Assembly (NCBI GenBank): GCA_016214345.1
Contig: JACROR010000009.1
Span: forward strand, 241-64,240
Source: Candidatus Niyogibacteria bacterium
Lineage (GTDB): Bacteria; Patescibacteriota; Minisyncoccia; JACROR01
Direction of reading: 5' to 3'
DNA: 64,000 nt
In this document: positions 13,211 to 57,742 of the stretch, piece after piece
Numbering within the stretch: position 1 is the first letter of the stretch
Layout of the letters: every line of letters begins with the position of its first letter
Position numbers and translations under genes: made by a program
Notes under the pieces: generated by a model
What the model saw: the letters and a program-made list of their open reading frames with translations, nothing else
What the model was told of the DNA's origin: nothing
The model's database searches: none

Positions 13211-13245
13211 TATATTATCCAAAATTTGTTGTAAAATCAACAAAT

Positions 13246-14412
13246 ATGAGAATCCTCGCCATTGAAACCTCTTGTGATGAAACCGCCGCCGCCGTTCTGG
13301 AATGCCAGGGCGGACCAACAAATACGCAATATAAAATATTATCCAATATAGTTTCTTCACAAATAAAAATTCACGCCCAATGGGGTGGCGTGGTGCCCAA
13401 TCTCGCAAGACGCGAACATGAAAAAAATCTCGTGCCAATTTTGCTTCGCGCCCTGAAAAAAGCGAAAATATCTATAAATGAAAAGCGAAAAGTGAAAAGC
13501 GAAAAAACACGACTTAAAATCCAAAAGATTTTGGAACGAGAACAAGAACTACAAAAATATTTTTTAAAAAAAGTTCTGCCGATTGCCACGCCGGACATTA
13601 ATGCCATTGCCGTGACCTTTGGCCCCGGATTAGAACCCGCGCTTTGGACCGGAATCAATTTCGCAAAAACACTCTCCGCTGTTTGGGACAAGCCGCTAAT
13701 TCCCGTAAATCACCTGGAGGGACATATCGTATCTTCCATTATGCGCGGGAGGGAATTTGATACGACAGAAATCTCTTTCCCCGCGCTCGCGCTTCTAGTG
13801 AGCGGCGGGCACACGGAACTGGTGCTTATGAAAAAATGGCTGGATTACAAAACTATCGGAAAAACCAGAGATGACGCTGTTGGTGAAGCGTTTGATAAAG
13901 TGGCAAAACTTTTAAATCTCGGATATCCGGGAGGACCCATTATATCCAAACGCGCCTCTCTGGGAAATCCCAAAAACATTCTCTTGCCGCGCCCCATGAT
14001 AAACAGCGCCGATCTGGACTTCAGTTTTTCCGGACTTAAAACCGCCGTACTATACGCCGTCAGAAAAGAAAAATCCATATCCGCTCAAAAAATAAGCGAC
14101 TATGCCGCAAGCTTCCAGAAAGCCGCCACAGATGTATTGGTGTCCAAAACTCTCCGCGCCATTAAAAAATACCATCCCAGAACCGTACTGTTGGGCGGCG
14201 GAGTTTCCGCCAATCAAGAACTGCGGACTAAAATGCGTGAGCAATTAAAGCGCGCGTTTCCCAAAATAAAATTATTGCTACCGGAACAAAAATTCACGGG
14301 CGACAACGCCGCCATGATCGCCGCGGCCGGATATTTGCGTTACGCGAACCGCAAAATTAGAAAAAATCCGCTCTCCTTGAAAGCGGAAGGTTCGCTTAAA
14401 TTTATGATATAA
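13246..14412 (+). CDS. tsaD: tRNA N6-adenosine threonylcarbamoyltransferase TsaD (Kae1/Gcp family)
   Basis: MRILAIETSCDETAAAV...; HLEGHI; Lys-rich low-complexity insert. Confidence 0.9.
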   Translation: MRILAIETSCDETAAAVLECQGGPTNTQYKILSNIVSSQIKIHAQWGGVVPNLARREHEKNLVPILLRALKKAKISINEKRKVKSEKTRLKIQKILEREQELQKYFLKKVLPIATPDINAIAVTFGPGLEPALWTGINFAKTLSAVWDKPLIPVNHLEGHIVSSIMRGREFDTTEISFPALALLVSGGHTELVLMKKWLDYKTIGKTRDDAVGEAFDKVAKLLNLGYPGGPIISKRASLGNPKNILLPRPMINSADLDFSFSGLKTAVLYAVRKEKSISAQKISDYAASFQKAATDVLVSKTLRAIKKYHPRTVLLGGGVSANQELRTKMREQLKRAFPKIKLLLPEQKFTGDNAAMIAAAGYLRYANRKIRKNPLSLKAEGSLKFMI

Positions 14413-14423
14413 TTCAAATTATC

Positions 14424-16604
14424 ATGACTGCTGATTTTTCCAAACCGTATGACCCTAAAGAAGTTGAAGGGCACACCTATGAAGCGTGGCTTAAAGCCGG
14501 CTATTTTAATCCCGACCAACTGACAACCAAAGGAAAACCATACACCTTAGTTATTCCGCCACCCAATGTTACGGGCTCTTTACACATGGGGCACGCGTTG
14601 AACGCGACCATCCAAGACATCCTGATAAGAAAAAAACGGATGGAGGGAAGGCGCGCCCTCTGGATACCGGGAACGGATCACGCGGGCATAGCCACGCAAA
14701 ATGTCGTGGAAAAAAGTCTACGTAAAGAAGGAATTTTTCGCCACGAACTGGGGCGTGAAAAATTTTTGGAAAAAGTGTGGGAATGGAAAGAAAAATACGG
14801 AAATATCATCTTGGATCAATTAAAAAAACTTGGCGCCTCATGCGATTGGTCCAGAACACGCTTCACCATGGACCCAAAGTACCAAAAAATTGTCGCGGAA
14901 ACCTTCGCGCACTATTACAAAAAGGGCTGGATCTACCGCAAAGAGCGCGTCATAAGTTGGTGCCATCGCTGCCGCACCAGCTTATCCGATTTGGAGCTGG
15001 AATATCAGGAAACCAAAGGCAGTCTCTGGTTCATAAAATATCCTCTCGCGGAAACCGCGGGATATGTGGTAGTGGCAACCACCAGACCGGAAACCATGTT
15101 GGGCGATAGCGCGGTGGCGGTACATCCCAAAGATCCGCGATATGCCAACCTGGTGGGCCAATTTGTAATGCTGCCCTTGCAAGACAGGAAAATCCCCATC
15201 ATCGCCGATCGCAGAATTGAAAAAGAATTCGGCACCGGAGCGGTAAAAGTCACACCGGCCCATGACATGCTGGATGCCGAGATCGGAAACGACCACCATC
15301 TCGCGATTTACAAAATAATAGGTTCTGACGGAAAAATGACCCCAGAGGCCGGCTCCTTGTTCGCGGGACTCAAAATTGAAGAATGCCGCAAAAAAGTCGT
15401 AGAAGAACTGGAAAAACAAAATTTAATAGAAAAAATAGAAGAATACCGGCACAACATTTCCACTTGTTACCGTTGCCGCACGCCCATTGAACCTCTGCCT
15501 TCTTTGCAATGGTTCCTCAAGATGGACGATTTGGCGCGCCGCGCGTCAATCGCAGTAAACAAACAAAAAGTCATCTTTCATCCCGACCGCTGGAAAAAAA
15601 TTTATCTATCCTGGCTCAAAAATGTTAAGGACTGGACCATTTCACGCCAAATCTGGTGGGGACACCGGCTTCCTGTTTATTTTTGTGAAAATAAACAGGA
15701 AGAAAATTTCATAGTGGCGACCACGCCCCCTAAAAAATGTCCTTTTTGCCAAAATTGCGAAATGCGGCAATCCGAAGAAGTATTGGACACCTGGTTTTCT
15801 TCGGCGCTATGGCCTTTTGCCACGCTTCAATACGACCAGCGCGATTTCAAAAAATTCTATCCCACGCAGACCCTAAGCACCGCGCGCGACATAATAAATC
15901 TATGGGTGGCGCGCATGGTTTTTTCTTCGCTGGAATTTACCAAAAAAATTCCCTTCCAAAACGTTATAATACACGCCACCATCCTTACCAAGGACGGGCA
16001 ACGAATGTCCAAATCCCTGGGAACGGGCATTGACCCGATAAATTTGATAAATTTGTACGGAGCGGATGCCACGCGATTCGGACTCATCTGGCAAGCTATG
16101 AAAAATCAAGACATGCATTGGGCTGAGGAAAGTCTCGTAGCCGGAAAAAAATTCTTAAATAAAATCTGGAACGCGAGCCGTTTCGTATTGGAACGTGTCA
16201 CGGATGCTAAATTCAAAATTGCGACTAATCCTAAATTTTCCGCAAGAATTACCAAGCAAGACTCCAAAATATTAAAAAAACTTGAAGTGATTGTTAAAAA
16301 TACCGACCAAAATATTGAAAAATATAACTTCGGCCCAGCGTTGCACGATCTTTATAGTTTTTTCTGGCACGATTTTTGCGATATCTATCTGGAAGTGGCC
16401 AAAAAACAACTGGAAGATCCCAAACTAAAATTGCAAACGCAAAAAATACTTCTGCATGTCCTCGCAACATCGCTTAAACTTCTACATCCTTTTATTCCTT
16501 TCGTGACAGAAGAAATTTGGTCGGCGCTGATCCCCGCACAGGCAGGCAAATCCACTACTCAAAAACGCATGTTAATCATTGAATCATGGCCCAAGAAGCG
16601 CTAG
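14424..16604 (+). CDS. valS: valine--tRNA ligase (short form lacking C-terminal coiled coil)
   Basis: PPPNVTGSLHMGHALN (HIGH) and KMSKSLGT (KMSKS). Confidence 0.9.
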   Translation: MTADFSKPYDPKEVEGHTYEAWLKAGYFNPDQLTTKGKPYTLVIPPPNVTGSLHMGHALNATIQDILIRKKRMEGRRALWIPGTDHAGIATQNVVEKSLRKEGIFRHELGREKFLEKVWEWKEKYGNIILDQLKKLGASCDWSRTRFTMDPKYQKIVAETFAHYYKKGWIYRKERVISWCHRCRTSLSDLELEYQETKGSLWFIKYPLAETAGYVVVATTRPETMLGDSAVAVHPKDPRYANLVGQFVMLPLQDRKIPIIADRRIEKEFGTGAVKVTPAHDMLDAEIGNDHHLAIYKIIGSDGKMTPEAGSLFAGLKIEECRKKVVEELEKQNLIEKIEEYRHNISTCYRCRTPIEPLPSLQWFLKMDDLARRASIAVNKQKVIFHPDRWKKIYLSWLKNVKDWTISRQIWWGHRLPVYFCENKQEENFIVATTPPKKCPFCQNCEMRQSEEVLDTWFSSALWPFATLQYDQRDFKKFYPTQTLSTARDIINLWVARMVFSSLEFTKKIPFQNVIIHATILTKDGQRMSKSLGTGIDPINLINLYGADATRFGLIWQAMKNQDMHWAEESLVAGKKFLNKIWNASRFVLERVTDAKFKIATNPKFSARITKQDSKILKKLEVIVKNTDQNIEKYNFGPALHDLYSFFWHDFCDIYLEVAKKQLEDPKLKLQTQKILLHVLATSLKLLHPFIPFVTEEIWSALIPAQAGKSTTQKRMLIIESWPKKR

Positions 16605-17302
16605 CCATTGCCGGAGTTTCCGTCCAAGCGGCATTCATAGGATTTCTGCCGGCCATATTTTGGCTTTGGTTTTGGCTCAAAGAAGATCCGCATCCCGAGC
16701 CGCGAAAAGCATTACTGCTCGCTTTCGCAGGAGGAATGTTAATAGTTCCCGTGGCGCTATTTTTGGAAGAAGCCGCGTATAAAATAATGATAGAACTCGG
16801 CCTAGTGGCCGCCGGCGCCGTCAGTTCCTCAATATTTATAATCTGGGCGGCGATTGAAGAATACATGAAATACTTTGCCGCCAAGATGACGGTGCTCCGT
16901 CTCCCCGCCTTTGACGAACCCATAGACGCTCCGATATATTTGATAACCGCGGCAGTGGGATTCGCGTCCCTAGAAAATATTTTTTTCCTCTTCAAAACCA
17001 TTACGACCACTCCGGAACTAAGCTTAATTACCGGAGAAATGCGTTTTTTGGGCGCCACGCTCCTTCATATAGTAACCTCGGCCATAGTGGGCATGGCAAT
17101 CGCCCTTTCCTTTTTTCATCCGGAAAAACGCTCCCGAAATGTTTTGGGCGGCTTAATCGTCGCCGCTTTATTGCATGCGTGGTTTAACTTATTTATAATA
17201 AAGTCAGGCAGTGCAGGAGTCTTGCCGGTCTTCGCTTTAGTATGGCTGGGAGGCATAACGTTAATTCTCAGTTTAGAAAAAATTAAAAAAATAACTTCAT
17301 AA
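16586..17302 (+). CDS. PrsW-family intramembrane protease-like protein
   Basis: EEYMKY (EExxK), HIVTSAIVG and HAWFN motifs. Confidence 0.55.
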   Translation: MAQEALAIAGVSVQAAFIGFLPAIFWLWFWLKEDPHPEPRKALLLAFAGGMLIVPVALFLEEAAYKIMIELGLVAAGAVSSSIFIIWAAIEEYMKYFAAKMTVLRLPAFDEPIDAPIYLITAAVGFASLENIFFLFKTITTTPELSLITGEMRFLGATLLHIVTSAIVGMAIALSFFHPEKRSRNVLGGLIVAALLHAWFNLFIIKSGSAGVLPVFALVWLGGITLILSLEKIKKITS

Positions 17303-17304
17303 CC

Positions 17305-17760
17305 ATGACAAAAGACAAGAGATCGTTTTTTGAACGGCTAACGGGAAGCGTATCCGCGGACGAAGGAGAAATCAGCGCCCAGATTCATGATGGGAAAACC
17401 AAAAAAGAAGACTGGCTGGAAGGAACGGACGAAGGACAGCTAACAGTTGATGTCTTCCAAACGCCGGAGGAAATCATCATCCAATCCACCATTGCCGGAG
17501 TAAAACCGGAAGATTTGGACATCTCCATAACCCAAGATATGGTTACCATCAAAGGCACGCGCCGAAAAGATTTTGAAACCAAAGAAGACAATTATTATTA
17601 CCACGAACTCTATTGGGGAAAATTCGCCAGATCCATTCTCATTTCCGAAGAGATAGACGCGGACGAGGCCGAAGCGACCATCAAAAACGGCCTGCTTACC
17701 ATACGCCTGCCTAAAATTGACAAAGACAGAACGCATAAAATAAAAATAAAAAACTCTTAA
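17305..17760 (+). CDS. Hsp20/alpha-crystallin family small heat-shock protein
   Basis: ACD domain; GLLTIRLPK. Confidence 0.85.
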   Translation: MTKDKRSFFERLTGSVSADEGEISAQIHDGKTKKEDWLEGTDEGQLTVDVFQTPEEIIIQSTIAGVKPEDLDISITQDMVTIKGTRRKDFETKEDNYYYHELYWGKFARSILISEEIDADEAEATIKNGLLTIRLPKIDKDRTHKIKIKNS

Positions 17761-18033
17761 GTGGACGAGGAACTCAAAAAATTATTACAAAGAAACCTGG
17801 AAGTTTCGGAAGAAAGCCTGAAAATATTGAAAAAAATTAGCCGCGCCAGAATCATGGCCGCGGTTTACAATACTTTAAAATTGGCTATCATAATACTGCT
17901 CTCCGTTGGAGCGTATTATTACGTAGAACCCATGATCAATAACCTAATGGGCACCTTAAACCAATTGACCGGAGGCGCGCAATCCGCGCAACAGATCCAA
18001 GATTTGCTAAAACAATATAAATTGCCGAGGTAG
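17761..18033 (+). CDS. small hypothetical membrane protein (GTG start)
   Basis: One TM helix; stop inside 11-nt copy of tRNA-Phe 5' end. Confidence 0.4.
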   Translation: MDEELKKLLQRNLEVSEESLKILKKISRARIMAAVYNTLKLAIIILLSVGAYYYVEPMINNLMGTLNQLTGGAQSAQQIQDLLKQYKLPR

Positions 18034-18034
18034 C

Positions 18035-18166
18035 CCCTCACCCAGAATGGCATTATGCCGCGTGTTTTAACTGGATATTGCTTAACACAATTAAGTGCAC
18101 TAATATTTTAATAGTATTTATTTCTAGAGTGGCGACATAAAAACACAATGCCATTCTGGGTGAGGG
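18035..18166. mobile_element. MITE-like insertion (~132 bp) with 20-bp perfect TIRs and 11-bp TSD gccgaggtagc
   Basis: Left TIR 18035-18054 is the reverse complement of right TIR 18147-18166; direct repeats 18024-18034 and 18167-18177 (= first 11 nt of tRNA-Phe). Confidence 0.6.
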
Positions 18167-18238
18167 GCCGAGGTAGCTCAGTGGTAGAGCACAGGTTTGA
18201 AAAACCTGGTGTCGGGAGTTCGATCCTCCCCCTCGGCA
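18167..18238 (+). tRNA. tRNA-Phe(GAA)
   Basis: Acceptor gccgagg/cctcggc, anticodon stem caggt/acctg, loop ttGAAaa, T-arm gggagTTCGATCctccc. Confidence 0.9.
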
Positions 18239-18318
18239 CAACGAACTTGCCTGCCGATAGGCAGGCGCAGTGAGTTGCGGCGAGGGAGCAAATAAGCAAA
18301 CAGTTTTACAAAAATATT

Positions 18319-18390
18319 CTCCCCATAACTCAATGGATAGAGCGTCAGCCCTCTAAGCTGAACATGTGGGCTTCGCCCCCCACTTTATGC
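18319..18390 (+). pseudogene. degenerate tRNA-Arg(TCT)-like element (C33, 8-nt T-loop); acceptor complement located 100 nt downstream
   Basis: D-arm and anticodon arm (tcagc-ccTCTaa-gctga) resemble neighbouring tRNA-Arg; 5' acceptor ctcccca has no local partner but pairs with tggggag at 18490-18496. Confidence 0.3.
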
Positions 18391-18462
18391 GTCCCCGTAG
18401 TTCAATGGATAGAACGAGAGCCTTCTAAGCTCTAGATCGAGGTTCGATTCCTCGCGGGGGCA
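18391..18462 (+). tRNA. tRNA-Arg(TCT)
   Basis: Acceptor gtccccg/cgggggc (U2.G71), anticodon stem agagc/gctct, loop ctTCTaa, T-arm cgaggTTCGATTcctcg. Confidence 0.85.
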
Positions 18463-18503
18463 TATAAAGTGGGGGGTGAGAATTCCTACTGGGGAGATTA
18501 GAG

Positions 18504-18540
18504 GGGCGCGCAGCTCAGTGGTAGAGCGACTCGTTTATTC
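18504..18540 (+). pseudogene. 5' half-copy of tRNA-Val(TAC) (acceptor, D-arm, anticodon stem 5' side)
   Basis: gggcgcgcagctcagtggtagagcgactcgtttat matches 18557-18592 of full gene at 31/35 nt. Confidence 0.6.
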
Positions 18541-18556
18541 ACCCCGTTAGATATTT

Positions 18557-18631
18557 GGGCGTTTAGCTCAGTGGTAGAGCGACTCGTTTACACCGAGTAG
18601 GTCCGGGGTTCGATCCCTCGAACGCCCACCA
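18557..18631 (+). tRNA. tRNA-Val(TAC) with encoded CCA
   Basis: Acceptor gggcgtt/aacgccc, anticodon stem actcg/cgagt, loop ttTACac, T-arm cggggTTCGATCccctcg, CCA encoded. Confidence 0.9.
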
Positions 18632-35204: not shown

Positions 35205-35801
35205 ATGCTTATACCAACCGTCATAGAAAAATCACAATTCGGCGAAAGGGCTTACGATATTTATTCACGCCTATTGAAAGAGCGTATCGTATTTTTAGGC
35301 GGCACTATCACCGATCCGGTGGCCAACACCATCATCGCCCAGCTTTTATTTTTGGAATCCGAAGACCCTAAAAAAGACATTAATCTGTACGTTGATTCTC
35401 CGGGAGGCTCGGTTACCGCGACCCTCGCCATCTACGACACTATGCAACACATCAAACCCGATGTCGCGACCATTTGCGTGGGACTTGCCGCCTCAGGTGG
35501 CGCCATAATACTCGCGGCCGGAGCCAAGGGTAAGCGTTTTATTCTGCCCAATTCCGAAGTCATGATTCATCAAGTGTTGGGAGCCGCCGAAGGACAAGCC
35601 ACGGAAATTGAAATTTCCGCTAAACATATTTTAAAAGTAAAACATCGGCTCAATATGATATTGGCCGACCATACAGGCAAGCCAATATCAAAAATAGAAC
35701 AGGACACCGATCGCGATCTGTTTATGACCGCCGAAGAAGCCAAACAATACGGCATCGTGGACAAGATCGTAAAATCCAAAACCGAAACTGGCAAAAAATA
35801 A
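35205..35801 (+). CDS. clpP: ATP-dependent Clp protease proteolytic subunit
   Basis: Ser-His-Asp triad context [15 protein letters not shown]. Confidence 0.95.
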
Positions 35802-37426: not shown

Positions 37427-37546
37427 ATGTTCTATATTGTATCACGCGCCCATATTCCTCCAGCTATTGACATTTTTATTGATATATGATAATCTTATTT
37501 AAAGTAAAAACGGTTCTTTTCATAAACTCCAAGCAAGGAGGATTCC

Positions 37547-37750
37547 ATGCCCAAACGTAGACTGCCCCTCAAAATAGCGATGAAAGCGGTTGCCATGTCC
37601 CACCATTTCCCCTCTCTCGCGCCCGGTCACGGCGGCACGCACGGCGAATGCGTCAACCGCAAATGCGTAACCCACATCGGCAAAGGCGGAGAAGCACACA
37701 CCCAAAACCCGCTCACGTCAGCTGTCGCGTTTCTTACCCCGACCAATTAA
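37547..37750 (+). CDS. small His/Gly/Cys-rich protein in GC-rich island (speculative)
   Basis: SD aaggagg 5 nt before ATG; terminator 55 nt downstream. Confidence 0.3.
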   Translation: MPKRRLPLKIAMKAVAMSHHFPSLAPGHGGTHGECVNRKCVTHIGKGGEAHTQNPLTSAVAFLTPTN

Positions 37751-37805
37751 CCGCACCCTCCAAACCCTCCGGGGCGACCACCTTATCGCTCCGTCTCACC
37801 CACCA

Positions 37806-37839
37806 CCACCGCGGTATTTGCCGCGGTGGAATTTTTTTT
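37806..37839 (+). terminator. rho-independent terminator
   Basis: ccaccgcgg-tatttg-ccgcggtgg followed by aatttttttt. Confidence 0.8.
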
Positions 37840-38016
37840 AAAACCCCGCGAACCTACCTACCGGCAAGTAAACAGATTTGCATTATTTAAAAATTTCTGA
37901 TATAGTATATTTAATAAATTATCAATTAATTAAAAAAATTTTATCCAATTAAAACCCGTGAGTTTGTTTCATGAATAATAATATAGTAATGGAAAAAATA
38001 AACGGAAACACAATTT

Positions 38017-39543
38017 ATGACATCCACCTTACTTGTCGTAGCGGTGGTTTCGATTTTGGCAGGAATTGCGGGAGGCTATCTATTGCGCCAGATTATAGCC
38101 AGGCAAAAACGCGACTCAATAGAATTAGACGTCAAGCAAATTCTTTTAGACGCCAAAACTGAAGCTCGCCAAACATTAGACGAAGCCAAGAAAAAAGCCG
38201 AGTCAGTAACGGAATCCGCCAAGCGCGATGAGCGCGAACGCGAATCTCAGATCAGAAAATTAGAGGAAAGAATCATTCAAAAAGAGGAGCTTGTGGAAAA
38301 GCGCCGTCTTGATGTTGATAAAGAACGAGAATCTCTGCAAGCGAAAGCCAACAAAATAAAACAGATAGAAAAAGAATTGGGAGATCTGGAAGAAAGCAAA
38401 AGATAAGAACTGGAGAAGGTCGCCCAACTCTCGGAAGAAGACGCGAAACACCAACTGCTCCAGAGTGTGGAACAAAAATACGAAGGAGATATTTTGGCGC
38501 GCATCCAAAAACTGGAGATCTTCGGCCAGGATAAATTGGAACAGCAAGCCAAAAATATTCTCGCCGCCGTCATACAGCGGCTGGCTTCTTCCACCGCCAC
38601 GGAAATAACCACTTCATCCGTCACCATCCCTTCTGACGACATCAAAGGGAAAATCATAGGAAAAGAAGGAAGAAATATCCGAGCGCTGGAACGCGCCACG
38701 GGAGTGGAAATCATCGTGGACGAAACTCCCGGAGAAGTGATAATTTCCTGTTTTGATCCCGTACGCAGACAAATCGCAAAGATCGCCCTGGGAAACCTGA
38801 TCGTAGACGGCAGAATACAACCGGCGCGCATTGAAGAAGCGGTGGAAAAATCCAAAGCCGCGGTGGAGAGCATGATCAAAGCGGCCGGAGAAGCCGCGGC
38901 TTACGAAATCGGCATCATGGATCTGGATCCGAGGCTTTTGATGATAATGGGACGGCTTAAATTCCGAACCAGCTATGGGCAAAACGTATTGCAACATTCC
39001 ATAGAAATGGCGCACATCGCGGGCATGCTCGCGTCCGAATTGGGCGCTGACGCGCAAATCGCCAAAAAAGGCGCGCTTTTGCACGACATAGGCAAGGCGG
39101 TATCTCATGAGATACAAGGCACGCACGTGGAAATCGGCCGACGCATTTTACAAAAATTCAACACCGATGAACGCATCATCAAAGCCATGCAATCGCACCA
39201 CGAAGAGTATCCTTTTGAAACGGTAGAGTCCATCATCGTGCTCGTGGCAGACGCGATATCCGCGGCCCGCCCGGGAGCGCGCAGAGACACGGTTGAAAAT
39301 TATTTAAAACGCTTGGAAGATTTGGAGCGCATAGCCACTTCTTTTGAAGGGGTGGAAAAAGCTTACGCCATACAAGCCGGAAGAGAAATCAGAATATTCG
39401 TAACACCGGAAAAAATTTCCGATCTGCAAATGAAAAATTTGGCGCGCGAGATCGCCAATCGCATTGAACAAGAACTGAAATATCCCGGAGAAATTAAGAT
39501 AAACGTTATCCGTGAAACCAGACTCGTGGAATATGCCAGATAA
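38017..39543 (+). CDS. rny: ribonuclease Y, interrupted by in-frame TAA at 38404-38406
   Basis: N-terminal TM plus coiled coil; KH (IGKEGRNIRALE) and HD (HSIEMAHIAG...LHDIGKA) domains. Confidence 0.8.
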
Positions 39544-47548: not shown

Positions 47549-49651
47549 ATGGAAAGAAAAAAATTCTCGTGCGACTTTGCGGGACGCAAAGTGGAAGCGG
47601 AGTTCTCTAATTTAGTGGAACAAGCCAACGGTTCCGCCATTGTGCGCTACGGCGATACGGTGGTGCTGGCCACCGCGACCATGTCCAAACAAACCAAAGA
47701 AAATTTGGACTATTTTCCGCTAACCGTTGATTACGAAGAAAGATATTACGCAGTCGGCAAAATATTGGGCTCGCGATTCGTGCGGCGCGAAGGCAGGGCG
47801 CCGGATTCCTCCATTCTCACGGGGCGCGTCATAGACCGTACCATCCGCCCCTTATTTGACATTAAAATCAGAAACGAAGTCCAGGTCATCACCATGGTTT
47901 TGTCCTATGACGAAGAAAATTCTCCGGACATTCCCGCGCTTTTAGCCACCTCGCTCGCGCTCGGCACTTCGGACATCCCCTGGGGAGGACCCATAGCCGG
48001 CGTACGGGTCATAAAAAAAGACGGAAAATTCATCATCAATCCGACGGCCGCGGAAAGGGAAGTATGCGAATTGGAAACCGTGGTCTGCGGAAAAGACGGA
48101 AAAATAAACATGGTGGAAGCCGGAGCCCAAGAAGTGCCCGAAGCAGATGCTGTGGAAGCTTTCAAAATAGGACTGGAAGAAATTGAACGCATAAATGCTT
48201 TTCAAAAAGACATCATCAAAAAGATCGGCAAAGAAAAAATAATCCCACAAATAACGCCCGAACCGGAAGGGCTACGCGACCTGTTCAATAAACATTTTCG
48301 TCCGAGACTCGCGGATTATGTCTATATAGAAGAAAAAACCGGACGCACCACGCGGCTGATGGAGCTTAAAAAAGAATGGACCGACGCGGCCATAAAAGAT
48401 TTCGGCGACAAAATTCTTAGTTTATACGGCGAGATCTACGAAGAGGCGATTGATGAAATAATGCACGAAAACATTTTGGAGCATGGCAAGCGCCCGGACT
48501 ACCGCAAATTGGACGAATTACGGCCGCTCTACGCGGAAGCGGGACTGCTTCCGCGCACGCACGGATCGGGCTTATTTTTCCGGGGTCAAACTCATGTGCT
48601 TTCCGTAGTTACTCTAGGCTCACCGCAAGACAATAAACTCATAGAAAGCATGGAAGGGCGCGTGGAAAAACGCTTTATGCATCAATATAATTTCCCTCCG
48701 TATTCTTCGGGTGAAACCAAACCGCTCCGCGGTCCGGGAAGACGCGAGGTCGGGCATGGCGCGCTCGCGGAAAAAGCGCTGGCCGCGGTAATACCTCCCA
48801 AAGAAAAATTTCCCTACACCATCAGAATAGTTTCCGATACCATGTCTTCCAATGGATCAACTTCCATGGCTTCGGTATGCGCGTCCACGCTCGCGTTAAT
48901 GGACGCCGGCATCCCCATAAAAAATCCGGTGGCCGGCATTGCCATGGGACTCGCCATGAAAGATGAAAAAAATTATAAGATCTTAACCGACATACAAGGA
49001 CCGGAAGACCACCACGGCGATATGGATTTCAAAGCCGCGGGAACGCACGCGGGATTAACCGCCATACAAATGGATGTTAAAATAGAAGGGGTGACCGTAG
49101 GCATTCTGGCCGAAGCGCTGGAAAGCGCCAAAATAGCCCGCCTGCAAATTTTAAAAGTTATACAAGGAGCCTTGAATGCTCCTCGCCCGGATCTGTCGCC
49201 TTTCGCGCCGCGCATTCTCATCCACAAGATAAGTCCGGATAAGATCGGCACGGTAGTGGGAACCGGAGGCAAGACCATAAACGGCATCATCGCCAAAACC
49301 GGCGCGGCCATTGATATAGAAGAGGACGGAACCATATACATTACCGGAACGGATAAAGACTCGGCGGAAGCCGCGCTCCAAATAATAGAAGGGCTTACCA
49401 AGGAATTCAAACCGGGAGAGCGCATAGAAGGAGTGGTCGGTCGCATATTTGAATTCGGCGCCATGGTGGAACTATCGCCCAATCAAGACGGATTGATCCA
49501 CATCTCCAAACTCGCTCCGCATCGCGTAAACAAAGTCACGGACATAATCAATATCGGCGATAAAGTGGAAGTGGAAGTCATAGGCGTAGATGAAAAGGGA
49601 CGCGTTAATTTGGCTTTAATCAATGGAGGAAAAAGAACAGAACCCCGTTAA
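47549..49651 (+). CDS. pnp: polynucleotide phosphorylase
   Basis: Two RNase PH domains, KH and S1. Confidence 0.95.
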   Translation: MERKKFSCDFAGRKVEAEFSNLVEQANGSAIVRYGDTVVLATATMSKQTKENLDYFPLTVDYEERYYAVGKILGSRFVRREGRAPDSSILTGRVIDRTIRPLFDIKIRNEVQVITMVLSYDEENSPDIPALLATSLALGTSDIPWGGPIAGVRVIKKDGKFIINPTAAEREVCELETVVCGKDGKINMVEAGAQEVPEADAVEAFKIGLEEIERINAFQKDIIKKIGKEKIIPQITPEPEGLRDLFNKHFRPRLADYVYIEEKTGRTTRLMELKKEWTDAAIKDFGDKILSLYGEIYEEAIDEIMHENILEHGKRPDYRKLDELRPLYAEAGLLPRTHGSGLFFRGQTHVLSVVTLGSPQDNKLIESMEGRVEKRFMHQYNFPPYSSGETKPLRGPGRREVGHGALAEKALAAVIPPKEKFPYTIRIVSDTMSSNGSTSMASVCASTLALMDAGIPIKNPVAGIAMGLAMKDEKNYKILTDIQGPEDHHGDMDFKAAGTHAGLTAIQMDVKIEGVTVGILAEALESAKIARLQILKVIQGALNAPRPDLSPFAPRILIHKISPDKIGTVVGTGGKTINGIIAKTGAAIDIEEDGTIYITGTDKDSAEAALQIIEGLTKEFKPGERIEGVVGRIFEFGAMVELSPNQDGLIHISKLAPHRVNKVTDIINIGDKVEVEVIGVDEKGRVNLALINGGKRTEPR

Positions 49652-50588
49652 ATCCGATGAAATTGGTGTCCCGCAAAAAGTGGGACAATTTAACAGGGCA
49701 AACCAAGAGAAAATGGCAACAGAGCCCAATAATAAACCGGAAAATATTCCGGCCATACGCACTTATTCGGGAGACGTTCAGGAATATATACAAAAAAAGG
49801 GGACGTCTTACATAAACGCCATGGCGCAAGCCGCCCGGCGAAAACAATCCTCTAACTCTATCAGCGAAGATCTCGCGCCAAAACCGTATCTCAAAATAAT
49901 CCTTGGGGGAGGAGCGGCGATTTTACTCACAACTATAATCGCGGTCGGGACATATTTTTGGTTTTTTGCGAAAAAACCGACCGAATCAGCGCAAACACCA
50001 AGACCCCCTCAAGCCCTAATACGCGCCGATCATGAAAACATAATCTTCTGGGAAGCCGGCAACGCGCAAAACATTCTAACCGCCCTCCAAAATGCGCTTG
50101 CCAAGCCGCAAATAAGCGGAGAATTCACTTATTTGCCGGCCAAAAAAACGGAGAACAAACAGGAAAAATTCTTAAGTTCGGCTGAATTATTAAAAAACGC
50201 GGGAATTAAAACTCCGCAAGATCTTATAGATAACCTGGCGGGGTTTCCCACCTTCGGTGCCATAGATGCTTTGGGCCGCAATGAAACTGTATTTCTATCG
50301 CCCATTTCCGACTATGAAAGAGCTTTTGCCGCCATGCTTCGCTGGGAGCCTGCCATACTCGCGGATTACCAATCCTTACTGCCTCAAGATAAAGATCTGA
50401 ATACCGGCAAGATCACTTTTGAAGACGTGGTCATAAAAAACAATGACGCCCGCGCGCTGAAAAACATTGAAAATGAAATAGTTTTGGCATATACTATATT
50501 TAACAGAAAAATTTTAATAATTGCCTCTTCTAAAACAGCGCTGGAACAAGTTTTGGAGAGACTAATCTCATCGCCACCAACCTTATGA
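49623..50588 (+). CDS. hypothetical membrane-anchored protein
   Basis: One TM helix. Confidence 0.5.
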   Translation: MEEKEQNPVKSDEIGVPQKVGQFNRANQEKMATEPNNKPENIPAIRTYSGDVQEYIQKKGTSYINAMAQAARRKQSSNSISEDLAPKPYLKIILGGGAAILLTTIIAVGTYFWFFAKKPTESAQTPRPPQALIRADHENIIFWEAGNAQNILTALQNALAKPQISGEFTYLPAKKTENKQEKFLSSAELLKNAGIKTPQDLIDNLAGFPTFGAIDALGRNETVFLSPISDYERAFAAMLRWEPAILADYQSLLPQDKDLNTGKITFEDVVIKNNDARALKNIENEIVLAYTIFNRKILIIASSKTALEQVLERLISSPPTL

Positions 50589-50950
50589 TATCCGATCTTG
50601 ATTTCTATAAGAATAAATTAAAAGAAGAAGAGACTCGCCTGGAAAAGGAACTAAGCACGCTGGCCATCCGCAATCCGGAACATCCGGAAGATTGGCAACC
50701 GACAACTCCGGAATTAAATCCGCAACTCTCGGACGACAGCGAACTAGCAGATAAATTTGAAGAATTTGACACCCAATTCGGCATAGAAACCGCGCTGGAA
50801 GAGCGACTGATAGGCGTCAAAAAAGCGCTCAAACGCGTTGCCGAAGGAACTTACGGCAAATGCGAAAAATGCCATGAAGTTATAGATCCCAAACGCCTAA
50901 ACGCCAATCCCGCCGCCATCACCTGCCTTAAACACGCTGATACGGAATAA
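50585..50950 (+). CDS. TraR/DksA-family C4 zinc-finger protein
   Basis: CEKCHEVIDPKRLNANPAAITC. Confidence 0.7.
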   Translation: MISDLDFYKNKLKEEETRLEKELSTLAIRNPEHPEDWQPTTPELNPQLSDDSELADKFEEFDTQFGIETALEERLIGVKKALKRVAEGTYGKCEKCHEVIDPKRLNANPAAITCLKHADTE

Positions 50951-50959
50951 ATCAAAATT

Positions 50960-52498
50960 GTGACTACGCAGGCTGTAAAACTTCATTCAGCTCAAACCGT
51001 AGGACTGCACGGCGTCATAATTGACGTGGAAGTTGATCGCTATCTCGGCACCAAAAAACTCTCCATCGTGGGTCTGCCCGATAAAGCGGTGGAAGAATCT
51101 TTGGAACGCGTTTCCGCGGCCATAAAAAACAGCGGCAAAATTTCCCCTCAAAAAAGAAACCAGCGGGTTACCGTTTCTTTAGCTCCGGCGGACCTCAAAA
51201 AAGAAGGTCCGATTTTTGATTTGGCGATAGCTTTGGGATATCTTCTGTCATCCAACCAAATAAATTTTGATCCGCGAAATAAACTTTTTTTGGGCGAACT
51301 GTCGCTAAACGGAGCGCTTCGCCCCATCAAAGGAGCGCTACCTTTGGCGGCGAAAGCCAAAAAAGCAGGATTTGAAGAAATATATCTGCCGGCCGGCAAC
51401 GGAACCGAAGCCGCGCTAATAGACGGCCTAAAAATATTTGAAGCCGCGAGCTTAAGCGACGTCATGCAACATTTGGAGGACGAAATTAAAATTCCGCCGC
51501 GCGCCCGTCCGCGTATAGAAAAAATCCATGCCGAAATTAAAGAACAATCCGACTTATCGGAGATTAGAGGACAAGCGGCCGCCAAACGTGGATTGGAGAT
51601 CGCGGCGGCCGGAGGACACAATCTCTTGATGATCGGACCTCCGGGCACCGGCAAAACCATGCTGGCCAAAGCCCTGCCGTCCATCCTTCCTCCCCTTACT
51701 TTTGAAGAAAGCCTGGAAGTTACCGCCATACACAGCGTGGCCGGAAAATTAAAAATACCTTTCTTGTCGGCACGGCCCTTTCACAGCCCCCACCACACTT
51801 CGTCTTATGTGGCGCTGGTCGGCGGAGGCGCGTGGCCCAGGCCCGGTGAAATAACGCTCGCGCACCGTGGCGTGCTTTTTCTGGACGAATTTCCGGAATT
51901 TGACCGCAGAGTCATAGAATCACTGCGGCAACCGCTGGAAAACGGCACTATCACCGTGGCGCGCGCCAAAGACACCGTAGAATTTCCCGCGCGTTTTATG
52001 CTAATCTGCGCCATGAACCCCTGCCCCTGCGGCAATTTGGGATCCAAAACCAAAAGATGCATCTGCAATCAAAATGCCATCTTGCGCTATCAACGAAAAG
52101 TTTCCGGACCTATCGCCGACCGCCTTGATCTATGGATAGAAGTTCCCCAAATAGCGCATGAAGAGTTGGGATCAAATGACCGGCGCGGGCCAACTTCGGC
52201 TGAAGTCCGCCACAAAGTGATCGCCGCGCGCGCCATCCAACAAAAACGTTTCCAATCAAGAAAATATTTTACCAATAGCGAAATACCCGTCAAAGATCTG
52301 GAAATTTTTATGCCGCTCTCCCAGGCTTGCCGCGCCACTCTCAACCTCGCCGCCAAAAGAATGGATCTCTCGCCTCGCGCTTATCATAGAGTAATAAAAA
52401 TAGCCCGCACCATCGCGGACCTGGCGGGAGAAATAAATATAAATGAAAATCACATCTTAGAAGCCATTCAATACCGTCCCTCTCCCAACCTTATTTGA
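50960..52498 (+). CDS. comM: YifB/ComM family Mg-chelatase-like AAA+ ATPase (GTG start)
   Basis: Lon-like N-domain; Walker A GPPGTGKTMLAKA; Walker B VLFLDEFPEF. Confidence 0.9.
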   Translation: MTTQAVKLHSAQTVGLHGVIIDVEVDRYLGTKKLSIVGLPDKAVEESLERVSAAIKNSGKISPQKRNQRVTVSLAPADLKKEGPIFDLAIALGYLLSSNQINFDPRNKLFLGELSLNGALRPIKGALPLAAKAKKAGFEEIYLPAGNGTEAALIDGLKIFEAASLSDVMQHLEDEIKIPPRARPRIEKIHAEIKEQSDLSEIRGQAAAKRGLEIAAAGGHNLLMIGPPGTGKTMLAKALPSILPPLTFEESLEVTAIHSVAGKLKIPFLSARPFHSPHHTSSYVALVGGGAWPRPGEITLAHRGVLFLDEFPEFDRRVIESLRQPLENGTITVARAKDTVEFPARFMLICAMNPCPCGNLGSKTKRCICNQNAILRYQRKVSGPIADRLDLWIEVPQIAHEELGSNDRRGPTSAEVRHKVIAARAIQQKRFQSRKYFTNSEIPVKDLEIFMPLSQACRATLNLAAKRMDLSPRAYHRVIKIARTIADLAGEININENHILEAIQYRPSPNLI

Positions 52499-52500
52499 TA

Positions 52501-52560
52501 GGTTTTTGATAGGTTATAGTGATTAGGTTATAGGGGTTAGGTTATAGTTGATAGATTGCT
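52501..52560. repeat. degenerate tandem repeat (~4 x GRTTAGGTTATAG)
   Basis: gataggttatagt gattaggttatagg ggttaggttatagtt. Confidence 0.6.
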
Positions 52561-52619
52561 TTATGAAAAATCATAAACTAGAACCTGGAAACTAAAATCT
52601 AAAAACTAGCCCCTAGAGC

Positions 52620-53651
52620 CTAGAACGGATTGCGTGGCCCTCCGCGGATCTCAAAATGCAGATGCGGTCCGGTGGATTTGCCGGTAGAGCCGATGTAGCC
52701 GATTATCTGTCCCTGTACCACGTGCCATCCGCTCCAAACTATATTTTTACTTAAATGATGCTGAATCACAATATATTGACCATAACCGCCATTCCAACCG
52801 GAGCTCTTGGAAATTAACACGTCTCCGGTCGCCGAAGCTACGATGGGAGTTCCGTAAGAAGCGGCCAGATCAACGCCATTGTACCCATGAATGCCCTGGG
52901 TCTTTCTACCATTTACGGGTTTTAGATAATAACCGGCGTATTCTTGGACATTCGGCGCGCCATATTGCTCTGTGTAATATTTAGGCGCGGCTATCTCTCC
53001 GTTGGGAATTAAAATCTCCATGCCCTCCGCGAGATCGCTGCCGGACGCCAAACCGTTGAAATCCAAAATGTCCCGAGCGTCTCCGTTAAATTTCTTGACA
53101 ATGCCCGCCAAAGTGTCTCCCTTCTTTACAACATATTGCACGCCGCTGACCGGCAGAATTATCAAAACTTGGCCCTTGCGTATAAGATCTCCGCGGTTAA
53201 TATCCGCATTGGCCCAAACAATGGTATTAACGCTAACGCCGAAAAGCTTGGCGATTCCAGACAGCGTATCGCCTTCCCTTACCACGTAAATACTGATTTG
53301 ATCGGATTTTTTCTGAACTTCTAACGCGTCAGCCAAACTGCCTAAAGGCCCGGTCACGGGAAGTAGCGCGGAATTTTCCACTATGGTAATATCTCCGCCG
53401 CCGGTACCTGCCAATAAATTCTCATTGGTGGGAGCGTCCAGCAACGATACAGTTTGGGAATTTATAATAGAGGCCGGCTGAAGCGTCTTCTCTGATTTGA
53501 ATAAATCTCCGAAAAACGAAAAAAATCCGGCATGAACCGGCAAAACCAGTCCAAAATATACTAAAAACGTGGCCAAAATAACCACCAACGCCCTAAAAGG
53601 CCTAATACCACATCGGCTTTTTATGGAGCATATTTGACCCTTACCCTGCAA
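52620..53651 (-). CDS. M23 family peptidase with two LysM domains
   Basis: 2 x LysM (GDTLSGIAKLFG, GDTLAGIVKKFN); M23 HxxxD/HLHFE. Confidence 0.9.
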   Translation of the reverse strand: MQGKGQICSIKSRCGIRPFRALVVILATFLVYFGLVLPVHAGFFSFFGDLFKSEKTLQPASIINSQTVSLLDAPTNENLLAGTGGGDITIVENSALLPVTGPLGSLADALEVQKKSDQISIYVVREGDTLSGIAKLFGVSVNTIVWANADINRGDLIRKGQVLIILPVSGVQYVVKKGDTLAGIVKKFNGDARDILDFNGLASGSDLAEGMEILIPNGEIAAPKYYTEQYGAPNVQEYAGYYLKPVNGRKTQGIHGYNGVDLAASYGTPIVASATGDVLISKSSGWNGGYGQYIVIQHHLSKNIVWSGWHVVQGQIIGYIGSTGKSTGPHLHFEIRGGPRNPF

Positions 53652-53843
53652 AAAATCAGGGTCAGGTTCTTGTATATTGTTTAAAATAGGCTAAATTACG
53701 AATTTAATTGGTCAAACGCGATCGGGCAAAATTGCCAAGCAATTTTTAGCCCTTCAACGGCCTTTCTGCTACCTTATTCAATATACTCCTTTATAAGCTC
53801 CGAGTCAATCCAAAATGCCTATATTTGTGGATAAAATAAATAG

Positions 53844-55814
53844 GTGTTATTCTGGCAAATAATGAAGAAAAGTGCCTCCTCTCATATCTTAAATGGCCTG
53901 AATGGCCGCCAAAAAGACGCGGTGGAACACATCCACGGCCCCCTGCTTATATTGGCCGGTGCTGGATCGGGTAAAACCAAAGTTTTAGCTCACAGAATCG
54001 CCAATATCGTGCGCCTTGGCTGCTCCCCGGAACGCGTTTTAGCCATAACTTTTACCAATAAAGCGGCAGGGGAGATGCAAAAACGCATATCCGCGCTCAT
54101 CTCCAACAACCCACTAACTGCAAGCCGTCCTTTTGTAAGGACTTTCCATGCCCTGGGAGTACATATACTGCGCGAATCAGGCCATCACATAGGAATTTCT
54201 AAAAAATTCTCCATTTTTGACGAAGAAGACGCGCTTTCCCTTATGAAAGACTGTTTGCGGGATCTATCCATTGATCCCAAACAATTCCAGCCCGCCAAAA
54301 TGCGATCCGTCATATCCGCCCACAAAAGCGAACTGTTAACTCCGGAAGATTTGGCGGAAGACGCCCACAATTCCCCATTCCTCGTCAAATTGATCGCCGT
54401 CTGGCAACTTTATGAAAAAAAATTAAAAGAACATAGCGCTTTGGATTTTGACGATCTCATCGCCAAAACTATTGCCTTACTGAAAAAAAGTTCGGAAACC
54501 CTCAAACGCTACCAAGCACAATGGACGCACATCCATATTGACGAATATCAGGATACCAACCGTTCGCAATATCTGCTGGCAAGCCTTCTCGCGCGCGAGC
54601 ACCGGAATCTTTGCGCCGTCGGCGACATAGACCAGTCCATTTACGGCTGGCGCGGGGCCGATTTTCGGAATATTCTGAATTTTGAAAAAGACTGGCCCGA
54701 AGCCAAAATAATCACGCTGGAAGAAAATTACCGTTCTACGCAAACCATTTTAGACGCCGCCAACGCCGTCATCATAAAAAATCAATTCCGCCGGCCTAAA
54801 AATCTGTTCACGGAAAAAACCGGCGGCAATAAAATAAAAATCTTCCTGGCCGCCAACGAATTGGAAGAAGCCGCCTTTATCGCCCAAACGGCGCGCGCGT
54901 GCGCACAAAACAACACGCCAGCCGATAAAATAGCGGTGCTTTACCGTACTAATTTTCAATCCCGGGTTTTGGAAGAAGAATTTCTGCGACAGGGCATGCC
55001 TTACCAATTATTGGGCGTTAAATTCTACGAAAGAAAAGAAGTAAAAGATATTTTGGCGTATATTCGCATCGCCTTAAATCCGCAGGATCTTTTAAGCAAA
55101 AAAAGGATTATAAATACTCCAGCGCGGGGTATAGGCAAAATATTGCTTACTAAATATCTGGCGCGAGATAAAGATCTGAATCCCAAAGAAAAAACCTTGC
55201 TCCAAAACTTTGAAGAGATTATCCAAAGTATAGGCGACGCCGCGGCAACGAAACCGGCTTCAGAGGTAACGCGCGCAGCCATAGAAAAATCAGGTTATGC
55301 TAATTTTTTACGAGACGGCACGGAAGAGGGCGCTATGCGGCTGGCGAATATCCAGGAATTAGTCAGCTTGTCCAAAAAATACGATATATTTCCTTCTCCC
55401 GCGGGCATTGAAGAATTGTTGGCGGACGCGGCCTTAATGTCCGATCAAGACACTTTAAAAGAGCGAGAAAAAGCTGTGAAATTAATGACCGTGCATGCCG
55501 CCAAAGGACTTGAATTCAAGACGGTTTTTGTGGCGGGCATGGAAGAGGGACTGTTTCCGCACAATATGATGGGCGGCGGGAGCGATCCCTTGAAAGCCGA
55601 GGAAGAACGGCGGCTTTTTTATGTCGCGTTAACCCGGGCGGAAGAAAATTTATTCTTATCTTACGCGATTTTCCGCACAATCTTCGGAAGCAGACAAATC
55701 AACAAACCTTCGCGATTTTTGGAAGATATTCCGCCAGAACTCACGGAAGCCGTGAATCGCGAAAATATGCAAAACGAATATCCGGAAAGCGATACGGAAA
55801 TCATAAATTTGTAA
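53844..55814 (+). CDS. UvrD/PcrA-family ATP-dependent DNA helicase
   Basis: Walker A AGAGSGKT; helicase motifs DEYQDTN, VGDIDQSIY. Confidence 0.9.
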   Translation: MLFWQIMKKSASSHILNGLNGRQKDAVEHIHGPLLILAGAGSGKTKVLAHRIANIVRLGCSPERVLAITFTNKAAGEMQKRISALISNNPLTASRPFVRTFHALGVHILRESGHHIGISKKFSIFDEEDALSLMKDCLRDLSIDPKQFQPAKMRSVISAHKSELLTPEDLAEDAHNSPFLVKLIAVWQLYEKKLKEHSALDFDDLIAKTIALLKKSSETLKRYQAQWTHIHIDEYQDTNRSQYLLASLLAREHRNLCAVGDIDQSIYGWRGADFRNILNFEKDWPEAKIITLEENYRSTQTILDAANAVIIKNQFRRPKNLFTEKTGGNKIKIFLAANELEEAAFIAQTARACAQNNTPADKIAVLYRTNFQSRVLEEEFLRQGMPYQLLGVKFYERKEVKDILAYIRIALNPQDLLSKKRIINTPARGIGKILLTKYLARDKDLNPKEKTLLQNFEEIIQSIGDAAATKPASEVTRAAIEKSGYANFLRDGTEEGAMRLANIQELVSLSKKYDIFPSPAGIEELLADAALMSDQDTLKEREKAVKLMTVHAAKGLEFKTVFVAGMEEGLFPHNMMGGGSDPLKAEEERRLFYVALTRAEENLFLSYAIFRTIFGSRQINKPSRFLEDIPPELTEAVNRENMQNEYPESDTEIINL

Positions 55815-55822
55815 CATAAAAC

Positions 55823-56620
55823 ATGCGAAGCCACGGAACCAAATTGGGACAAAATTTTTTAAAATCACGAAACACGGCGCGAAAAATCGCGGAGGCCGCT
55901 CAAATTTCCAGCCAAGATGAAATACTGGAAGTCGGTCCGGGAAAAGGAATTTTAACGGAAAAGCTTCTGGCGCGCGCCAAACGCGTGGTAGCGGTGGAAA
56001 AAAATCCCGCTCTTATAAAAATACTCCGCGTAAAATTTATCAACGAACTGTCTCTCGGAAAGCTTGCGCTCGTAGAAGGCGATATTTTAAAATTCAATCC
56101 CGCGACAGAAGGTCTTTTGCCTAGCCGATACCGGATCGTGGCGAATATCCCTTACTACCTAACCTCGCATTTTTTGCGAAAAACGCTGGAATCAAAATGC
56201 CCGCCTCAAGACATGACCCTAACCATCCAAAAAGAAGTGGCGGAAAGAATTTGCGCCCGACCGCCGCGCATGAATTTGCTCGCCCTATCGGTACAAATTT
56301 TCAGCCAGCCGAAGATCGCTTTCAAAATATCCAAAAAAGAATTTGCGCCGGCGCCCAAAGTGGACTCGGCCGTTATCAACATAAACGACATTTCGCGCGC
56401 CTTTTTCTCCGCGAATAAAATAAACGAACAAAAATTTTTTAAAATCATAAAATCGGGGTTCGCGCAAAAACGAAAAGTTTTACTAAATAATCTTTACCAC
56501 CAACAAAATATTAAAAAATCTGAAATAGAATCCGTTTTTGAAAAGTGCGAAGTCCCCATCAAGGCGCGCGCGGAAAATCTGGAAATAAAACACTGGATTT
56601 GCTTATACAAAAACCTATAA
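55823..56620 (+). CDS. rsmA: 16S rRNA (adenine1518/1519-N6)-dimethyltransferase
   Basis: GQNFL, EVGPGKGILT, NIPYY. Confidence 0.9.
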   Translation: MRSHGTKLGQNFLKSRNTARKIAEAAQISSQDEILEVGPGKGILTEKLLARAKRVVAVEKNPALIKILRVKFINELSLGKLALVEGDILKFNPATEGLLPSRYRIVANIPYYLTSHFLRKTLESKCPPQDMTLTIQKEVAERICARPPRMNLLALSVQIFSQPKIAFKISKKEFAPAPKVDSAVININDISRAFFSANKINEQKFFKIIKSGFAQKRKVLLNNLYHQQNIKKSEIESVFEKCEVPIKARAENLEIKHWICLYKNL

Positions 56621-56625
56621 ATACT

Positions 56626-56650
56626 CACCTGGCTATCCGATAGCCAGGTG
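56626..56650. promoter_or_regulatory. 25-bp perfect palindrome cacctggctatc-c-gatagccaggtg
   Basis: Immediately after rsmA stop, before terminator. Confidence 0.4.
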
Positions 56651-56683
56651 GACGGATCTGTTGACTGATTGCCTACAAAATTA

Positions 56684-56712
56684 AAAGACCGTCCATTACA
56701 GACGGTCTTTTT
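56684..56712. terminator. rho-independent terminator (bidirectional)
   Basis: aaagaccgtc-cattaca-gacggtcttttt. Confidence 0.8.
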
Positions 56713-56717
56713 GTATA

Positions 56718-56807
56718 TTAGCCGGAGTGTGGCGGCCCTGCGGGAATAGAAAAAATTCCCGTAATCAACACCGCCACCAAAATTAACGAAACGAGACCCA
56801 AGGTCAT
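56718..56807 (-). CDS. 29-aa hydrophobic micro-protein (MTLGLVSLILVAVLITGIFSIPAGPPHSG)
   Basis: Strong SD aagggggtg 6 nt upstream of ATG; below ORF-track size cutoff. Confidence 0.4.
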   Translation of the reverse strand: MTLGLVSLILVAVLITGIFSIPAGPPHSG

Positions 56808-56831
56808 CACCCCCTTAATTGGTTTAAATGG

Positions 56832-56945
56832 TTATTTTTCCTTCCGAGAACCACCGAAGGCGAACGTCAGCGCGCCAACAGCCGTTAACAATACCGCTCC
56901 CACCATCAACAAACCACCAAAAGTCAAAACGACAAATTCTAACAA
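56832..56945 (-). CDS. 37-aa hydrophobic micro-protein (TTG start; LEFVVLTFGGLLMVGAVLLTAVGALTFAFGGSRKEK)
   Basis: Strong SD gaaggaggtg 7 nt upstream of TTG. Confidence 0.35.
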   Translation of the reverse strand: MLEFVVLTFGGLLMVGAVLLTAVGALTFAFGGSRKEK

Positions 56946-56976
56946 TAAATCACCTCCTTCTAAGGCAAAAGATTGT

Positions 56977-57678
56977 TTATAAACGAACCCACCAGCTTAC
57001 CAGCATATTATTATTGACCTGGTAATATTTGCCGGATTCATTACGCACATTAACATACTGCTTATACGGAACACGCGTGACGTGGCGGAAAAAACCGTAG
57101 CCGGCATAAGAATATATAACTAATTTATATTCTCCTTCCGGCAATTTAATGAACAAGTCGTTCACCCGATAATAATGGTTGCCGACAAGCCGTCCACCAC
57201 CGGTATCAAAAACGATCTCTAACACCCCGCCTGAATCGCGACGCGTCCGCAGCGTAACGCCCTGTAAAGAGGGCGTCCCAAAGTGAATGGCTTCCAAGGC
57301 CTCTACTCTATAAAACGGAGAAGCAAGCTTGGTCTTTTTTCCCCCTACTTCAATGTAACCTTGGGTTTTTACCTCGGCTATACCGAGATAGGGAAGCCAC
57401 TTGCCCTGCCGGCGGACATAAATAAACACATCCTTCTCTTCGCCGTCGCTTTCATTGCTGATTACGCCCAATAGTTCTTTGGAATTGCGCTCAAGCTCAA
57501 TTCCAAGAGAAGTAAATCCTCCGGGCGTAGCGTGAAGCTCGTTTCTGGAAAAAGCATCAGCCATTACTGCGGGCTCGCCCGACGATGAGACATCAAAACG
57601 CGCCATAACGCTTTTGCCCAAAGCGCAACCGGCAAGCAAAAACCAAACCATCGCAAGATACCACATCTTTTTCATCAC
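56977..57678 (-). CDS. lipoprotein, unknown function
   Basis: Lipobox LLAGC. Confidence 0.6.
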   Translation of the reverse strand: MMKKMWYLAMVWFLLAGCALGKSVMARFDVSSSGEPAVMADAFSRNELHATPGGFTSLGIELERNSKELLGVISNESDGEEKDVFIYVRRQGKWLPYLGIAEVKTQGYIEVGGKKTKLASPFYRVEALEAIHFGTPSLQGVTLRTRRDSGGVLEIVFDTGGGRLVGNHYYRVNDLFIKLPEGEYKLVIYSYAGYGFFRHVTRVPYKQYVNVRNESGKYYQVNNNMLVSWWVRL

Positions 57679-57742
57679 TTACTCCTGAAAGATAGTTTTT
57701 TGTTTTTAAAGTTCTTTTAGTTTCTATAATTATACACAATTT

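Follow-up and report, generated by a model that had tools for sequence, protein, structure and literature searches.

An in-frame stop codon in the RNase Y gene of one Candidatus Niyogibacteria assembly is a private one-base lesion

Introduction

Is a stop codon in the middle of a conserved bacterial gene part of the biology of the organism, or is it peculiar to one assembly? We address this question for the ribonuclease Y gene (rny) in a stretch of 64,000 nt from Candidatus Niyogibacteria, a genome bin of the Patescibacteria from groundwater (contig JACROR010000009.1); this stretch is hereafter called the window. Here an in-frame TAA stands where related genes carry a sense codon, and the public record lists the two halves of the gene as separate proteins. 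The origin of the stop is considered below from the reading frame itself, from an independent assembly and from related loci.

Results and discussion

Reading frame and domains of rny

An earlier note on this DNA had pointed out that the ORFs at 38017–38406 and 38467–39543 share a frame, and that rny, intact in every other respect (transmembrane segment and coiled coil, then KH and HD), is cut by a single TAA. Both points were borne out, the transmembrane segment as a prediction from the translation: the first by translation and the second by translation, Pfam and TIGR03319, the NCBIfam equivalog model for ribonuclease Y with a curated cutoff of 454.35 bits. The translated frame contains one internal stop only, and once it is read through this TAA the product matches TIGR03319 over its full length (619.8 bits, model positions 2–514 of 514). 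Scored singly, the N-terminal half reaches 42.4 bits (model positions 2–125) and the 358-aa C-terminal ORF 545.7 bits (model positions 157–514), the latter lying above the cutoff by itself. The bridging codons therefore contribute homologous signal of their own. Pfam matches in the joined product are RNase_Y_N (PF12072, residues 5–191), KH_1 and HD, so that the feature set of RNase Y is present: the coiled-coil RNase_Y_N region, KH, and HD with its His-Asp dyad. Both residues of the dyad, H356 and D357, are invariant in an alignment of 58 sequences. Judged by eye from the translation, residues 3–22 are hydrophobic and without charge and are followed by the basic stretch RQIIARQKRD; the position of this predicted anchor agrees with that of the RNase Y anchor described previously (PMC4608709). 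Coordinates of all features are collected in Table 1.

Table 1. Features of the rny locus in window coordinates.
Feature	Position	Strand	Remarks
Promoter-like site 5' of rny	37877–37906	+	TTTGCA, 18-nt spacer, TATAGT, with TG; consensus match only
rny (RNase Y), complete frame	38017–39543	+	508 sense codons, internal TAA at codon 130, terminal TAA
N-terminal fragment	38017–38406	+	ATG start, 129 aa plus TAA; predicted hydrophobic anchor, then the coiled-coil RNase_Y_N for about two thirds of its length
Predicted N-terminal membrane anchor	38023–38082	+	STLLVVAVVSILAGIAGGYL; residues about 3–22, read off the translation
In-frame TAA, codon 130	38404–38406	+	base 38404 is T; A (AAA, Lys) in the independent assembly
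Bridge	38407–38466	+	ELEKVAQLSEEDAKHQLLQS; 20 codons continuing the RNase_Y_N domain
C-terminal fragment as publicly annotated	38410–39543	+	MBI5045560.1 ('ribonuclease Y'), 377 aa with CTG 38410 taken as Met
Longest conventional ORF 3' of the stop	38467–39543	+	GTG start, 358 aa; KH, HD and C-terminal regions
KH RNA-binding domain	38617–38784	+	residues 201–256; PF00013, E = 1.8e-07
HD catalytic domain	38986–39264	+	residues 324–416; PF01966, E = 1.1e-18
His-Asp dyad H356-D357	39082–39087	+	inside the HD domain
ymdB (YmdB-family metallophosphoesterase)	39533–40360	+	PF13277, 298 bits; MBI5045561.1; also called in L001

The 60 nt between the two ORFs do continue RNase Y, as had been claimed, but they comprise 20 codons, since the 21st residue, V, is the GTG at 38467 itself. 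The start that had been written as M(38467) is accordingly a GTG and not an ATG. Among 57 homologs L132 in the bridge is invariant, and E131 and L138 are nearly so. At the 3' end of the gene the ATG of ymdB overlaps rny by 11 nt, and an early stop in rny could weaken translational coupling to ymdB.

In the public MAG record (locus tags HZC14_009xx, contig of 133,307 bp) the split appears as two proteins, so the stop belongs to the deposited assembly and not to the window copy alone. MBI5045559.1, a 'DUF3552 domain-containing protein', is an exact match to the 129-aa N-terminal half; MBI5045560.1 (P0122 in our collection) corresponds to window residues 132–508 with L132 written as M. The CTG start 4 nt past the TAA and the separate DUF3552 label are an annotation artefact of the split.

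In a six-frame scan of the 64 kb for single stops between long open stretches, with Pfam run on the candidates, rny was the only window gene found to be divided by one stop. The remaining same-frame ORF pairs were rejected as split genes, being unrelated adjacent genes: an Hsp20 gene and a small ORF, S15 and a NYN protein, a DksA-like and a Mg-chelatase-like gene, and a response regulator and the gene that follows it.

The region 5' of rny is enlarged. Between the iPGM gene and rny lie about 430 nt (37449–37877) which have no counterpart in the relatives L003–L007, where the interval is about 57 nt, and which are present in the same-strain contig described below. The segment contains a TTGACA box at 37467, an AAGGAGG Shine-Dalgarno (SD) sequence before an ATG at 37547, a 67-aa orphan ORF (MBI5045558.1; a singleton cluster with no Pfam match) and a strong intrinsic terminator at 37806–37829 followed by T8. 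From its sequence it looks like a self-contained small gene. An RNA gene in this enlarged region was considered and rejected (no Rfam match, fold z = -0.6).

An independent assembly of the same population

A protein search returned P0001, an uninterrupted RNase Y of 508 aa with K130 and with all other residues identical to those of the window rny product. P0001 is encoded on L001, an 8.6-kb Logan contig from run SRR12113407, in which rny is a single uninterrupted ORF, whereas in the window it is broken at codon 130. When 8,085 bp of L001 and the window were compared base by base, four positions differed, one of them being 38404 (T in the window, A in L001). Over the 1,527 nt of the gene the nonsense base is the only difference from the intact allele, from which we conclude that no decay has followed the stop; the bridge is identical in both.

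Three further SRR12113407 contigs cover window positions 13137–18588, 44747–49029 and 49004–60923. The first two, 9.7 kb together, match the window with 100.000% identity; a single SNP and a single 27-bp indel separate the third from it. In total the four contigs span 29,767 bp with 5 difference events, which identifies the SRR12113407 assembly as one of the same population. The earlier note had named a sense codon at this site in the reads as the observation that would speak against a genuine stop. A sense codon, AAA, is indeed found, by proxy, in an assembly of the same population rather than in the reads.

Exact-pattern scans of genome and metagenome contigs, with NNN at codon 130, returned no extra copies of the strain, and neither the 129-aa fragment, the 358-aa fragment nor P0122 had a match in the contig index. 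The split allele was present in no other assembly found. No mention of SRR12113407 was found in the literature, nor in the stored supplement text of PMC7906910 (He et al. 2021, PRJNA640378), the likely source study. In that study assembly was performed per filter with MEGAHIT, with scaffolding by IDBA-UD, and Niyogibacteria bins of about 45% GC and 3x to 56x coverage were reported (PMC7906910).

Codon 130 in relatives

The comparison with orthologous rny genes that the earlier note had called for gave a sense codon at this site in all relatives. Five of five loci from further groundwater data sets, whose nucleotide identity is about 85%, carry AAA at codon 130. More distantly, an internal stop in rny was found at the DNA level in none of 80 GTDB species-representative loci and in none of 80 metagenome loci; being made on DNA, these surveys carry no bias against interrupted genes. 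Altogether 0 of 165 related loci (the 5 close ones and 160 more distant) have a split rny. Position 130 is a variable sense residue across the relatives, K or E being commonest.

Other differences between the two assemblies

We then asked what else distinguishes the window from the SRR12113407 assembly. At 35394 the window encodes Asp (GAT) as codon 64 of ClpP (gene 35205–35801), whereas L001 and the relative L003 encode Asn (AAT). The resulting N64D lies within INSPGG, a conserved motif, and Asn is also the residue of the best-matching solved ClpP sequences at this position; the exact ClpP sequence of the window was not found in the protein collection, in which neighbouring MAG proteins are present. 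At 52757 the window lacks 27 bp, equal to the 9 codons PNGTQTLYS, in a LysM/M23 peptidase gene on the minus strand (52620–53651). The segment is present in L170 from the SRR12113407 assembly, belongs to the conserved M23 core and is kept in the best-matching solved M23 structures shown in the alignment. Its absence lowers the M23 Pfam score from 105.8 to 78.2 bits, and the deletion junction shows 1 nt of microhomology only.

At 40780–81 the window has TT in place of AC, changing AAG TAT to AAA AAT in a small ORF on the minus strand. The effect is one synonymous change and one Tyr to Asn replacement, where relatives carry Tyr or His. At 55679 a Thr codon differs synonymously (ACA in the window, ACC in the other assembly), the sole purely synonymous event of the five. 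The small ORF itself (window 40757–40960, minus strand; about 67 aa, VDKVTRNAGYFLSR...) lies downstream of the HU gene and is conserved in L003, L006 and L007. It has no gene call on L001, and the change at 40780–81 falls in its C-terminal tail.

All four differences that can be polarized, namely the rny stop, ClpP N64D, the 27-bp deletion in the M23 gene and the Tyr to Asn change, are derived in the window. Three of these (the rny stop, ClpP N64D and the M23 core deletion) look disruptive. As the changes lie on one branch and appear unfiltered by selection, they resemble consensus errors or very young mutations and not established strain divergence.

Nature of the lesion

Taken together, the sequence comparisons indicate that a single base has changed in one MAG only, turning AAA into TAA and Lys130 into a stop, in a rny that is otherwise ordinary. 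A conserved, programmed or recoded TAA is effectively excluded. Of the three options put forward in the earlier note, an error in sequencing or assembly survives, and so does a nonsense mutation of recent date; programmed readthrough does not.

In our leading reading the T at 38404 would go back to a wrong base in the consensus, or to a minority variant captured by the assembler, and would not be the working genotype; the normal allele of the population would encode the uninterrupted 508-aa RNase Y. We consider it somewhat more probable than not that this T is an artefact or a minor allele that was not dominant in the source sample. This origin is favored because about three disruptive changes per 30 kb are implausible for a lineage dominating a sample, and because all of them lie on the branch of the window. 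Two points count against it. Illumina consensus errors are rare when coverage is good, and a 27-bp deletion with 1 nt of microhomology is atypical for a de Bruijn graph or base-calling error. The deletion suggests that at least some of the differences private to the window are carried by actual DNA, and this favors a real haplotype.

The TAA could alternatively be a real and very young nonsense allele dominating the sampled population or strain, so that rny has lost its function and represents a pseudogene at its first step. Translation would then stop at codon 130 and leave a 129-aa membrane-anchored coiled-coil stub, with the KH-HD part largely unmade; such a strain would survive, since several bacteria can do without RNase Y. 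We regard this as a serious possibility, albeit one that we would not expect to hold. The private changes are consistent and linked, they include an in-frame deletion of 27 bp that is hard to ascribe to base-calling, and they resemble a distinct haplotype; the undecayed state of the gene elsewhere fits a very recent event. Against a real allele stands the density of the disruptive-looking changes, three in about 30 kb or roughly 100 per megabase, which is implausible in a lineage dominating its sample, as well as the derived state of every polarizable difference in the window and the lack of the allele in any other assembly found. A decaying pseudogene would differ from the intact allele by several lesions or by an excess of substitutions, and neither was observed in rny.

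Possible re-initiation and a possible two-piece enzyme

A real TAA might also be followed by re-initiation at CTG 38410, GTG 38467 or TTG 38494, giving a functional RNase Y in two pieces: a cytosolic KH-HD enzyme of 349–377 aa and a separate membrane-anchored N-terminal fragment. The candidate start codons lie 4, 61 and 88 nt past the stop, the C-terminal ORF passes the equivalog cutoff unaided (545.7 vs 454 bits), and RNase Y of S. aureus still cleaves without its anchor (PMC4608709). The anchorless form, however, slows S. aureus growth (PMC4608709), and the C-terminal fragment would lose most of the coiled coil, which contributes to dimerisation of RNase Y (PMC9775385).

Start signals and relatives give little encouragement either. 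Neither CTG 38410 nor GTG 38467 has an SD-like sequence upstream, so that re-initiation at 38467, as the earlier note had suggested, finds no positive support. Ahead of TTG 38494 there is an AAGGAG at a spacing of 5 nt, but this motif is dictated by the conserved YEGDIL codons. None of the 165 related loci is split, and the combination expected of a natural split, a start with a ribosome-binding signal beside the stop together with a split in relatives, was not found. A functional two-piece enzyme is unsupported, and we consider it quite improbable. If it were real, it would amount to a natural experiment in freeing RNase Y from the membrane, in an episymbiont whose genome is reduced, and the accompanying lesions in ClpP (N64D) and the M23 peptidase might be connected with it.

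As a separate observation on translation starts in the window, by a crude measure an SD-like 4-mer lies within 18 nt 5' of the longest-ORF start in 5 of 57 long ORFs. This suggests a weak reliance on Shine-Dalgarno sequences in the genome.

Readthrough or recoding

Full-length RNase Y would be made if the TAA were decoded as sense, whether through programmed readthrough, with the help of an ochre suppressor tRNA or under an altered genetic code. Such decoding would fit the seamless resumption of the homologous frame past the stop, and UGA is reassigned in some Patescibacteria lineages. Stop usage, tRNA set and folding in the window led us to reject a change of the genetic code, a suppressor tRNA and a readthrough structure. 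Among 57 long non-overlapping ORFs of the window TAA is the main stop (30, against 15 TGA and 12 TAG), and it terminates rny itself at the normal C-terminus of the family. The search for a suppressor tRNA proposed in the earlier note gave none with a UUA anticodon among the 14 tRNAs of the window. A stretch of 106 nt that includes the stop and the sequence beyond it is not unusually structured (MFE -17.5 vs a shuffle mean of -19.0 kcal/mol, z = +0.41), which leaves it without a stimulatory RNA structure. Internal stops occur in no other window gene. The stop is not conserved in relatives as a readthrough site would be: AAA stands at the site in the same population and in the 5 close loci. Given these findings, decoding of the TAA as sense is highly improbable.

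Implications

No new biology is indicated. The main value of the case is one of database hygiene: the halves of one rny are listed as the separate proteins MBI5045559.1 and MBI5045560.1, and anyone surveying the architecture of RNase Y or the gene content of Patescibacteria could be misled by such a split annotation. This assembly has several further private changes that look disruptive, and its single-gene oddities accordingly call for caution unless reads support them.

Comparison with known systems

The case resembles nonsense polymorphisms, nascent pseudogenes and MAG consensus errors in being a single private point lesion, with no further decay and with other unfiltered changes alongside, and nothing sets the rny lesion apart from this class. 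With stop-codon reassignment and programmed readthrough it shares an in-frame stop within a conserved gene of a Patescibacteria genome. Unlike in those systems, the codon, a TAA, is used in this way once, is not conserved, is the main true stop and is accompanied by neither suppressor tRNA nor structure in the window.

A re-initiated fragment would be a membrane-free catalytic KH-HD protein and in this respect would be like the engineered anchorless forms of RNase Y, S. aureus Y-delta-2-24 (PMC4608709) and the cytoplasmic B. subtilis enzyme (PMC11313650). The engineered forms, however, lose the anchor only (residues 2–24 in S. aureus) and have a proper start, whereas the hypothetical fragment would miss 131–159 residues, most of the coiled coil included.

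The gene also has its counterpart in RNase Y (Rny/CvfA; TIGR03319) of Bacillus subtilis and Staphylococcus aureus. As in those enzymes, a predicted anchor is followed by the RNase_Y_N coiled coil, KH, HD and a C-terminal region; the model is matched from end to end, and ymdB stands immediately 3'. It departs from these enzymes in that its frame is broken at codon 130 in one assembly, while P0001, its uninterrupted counterpart, is a regular member of the family.
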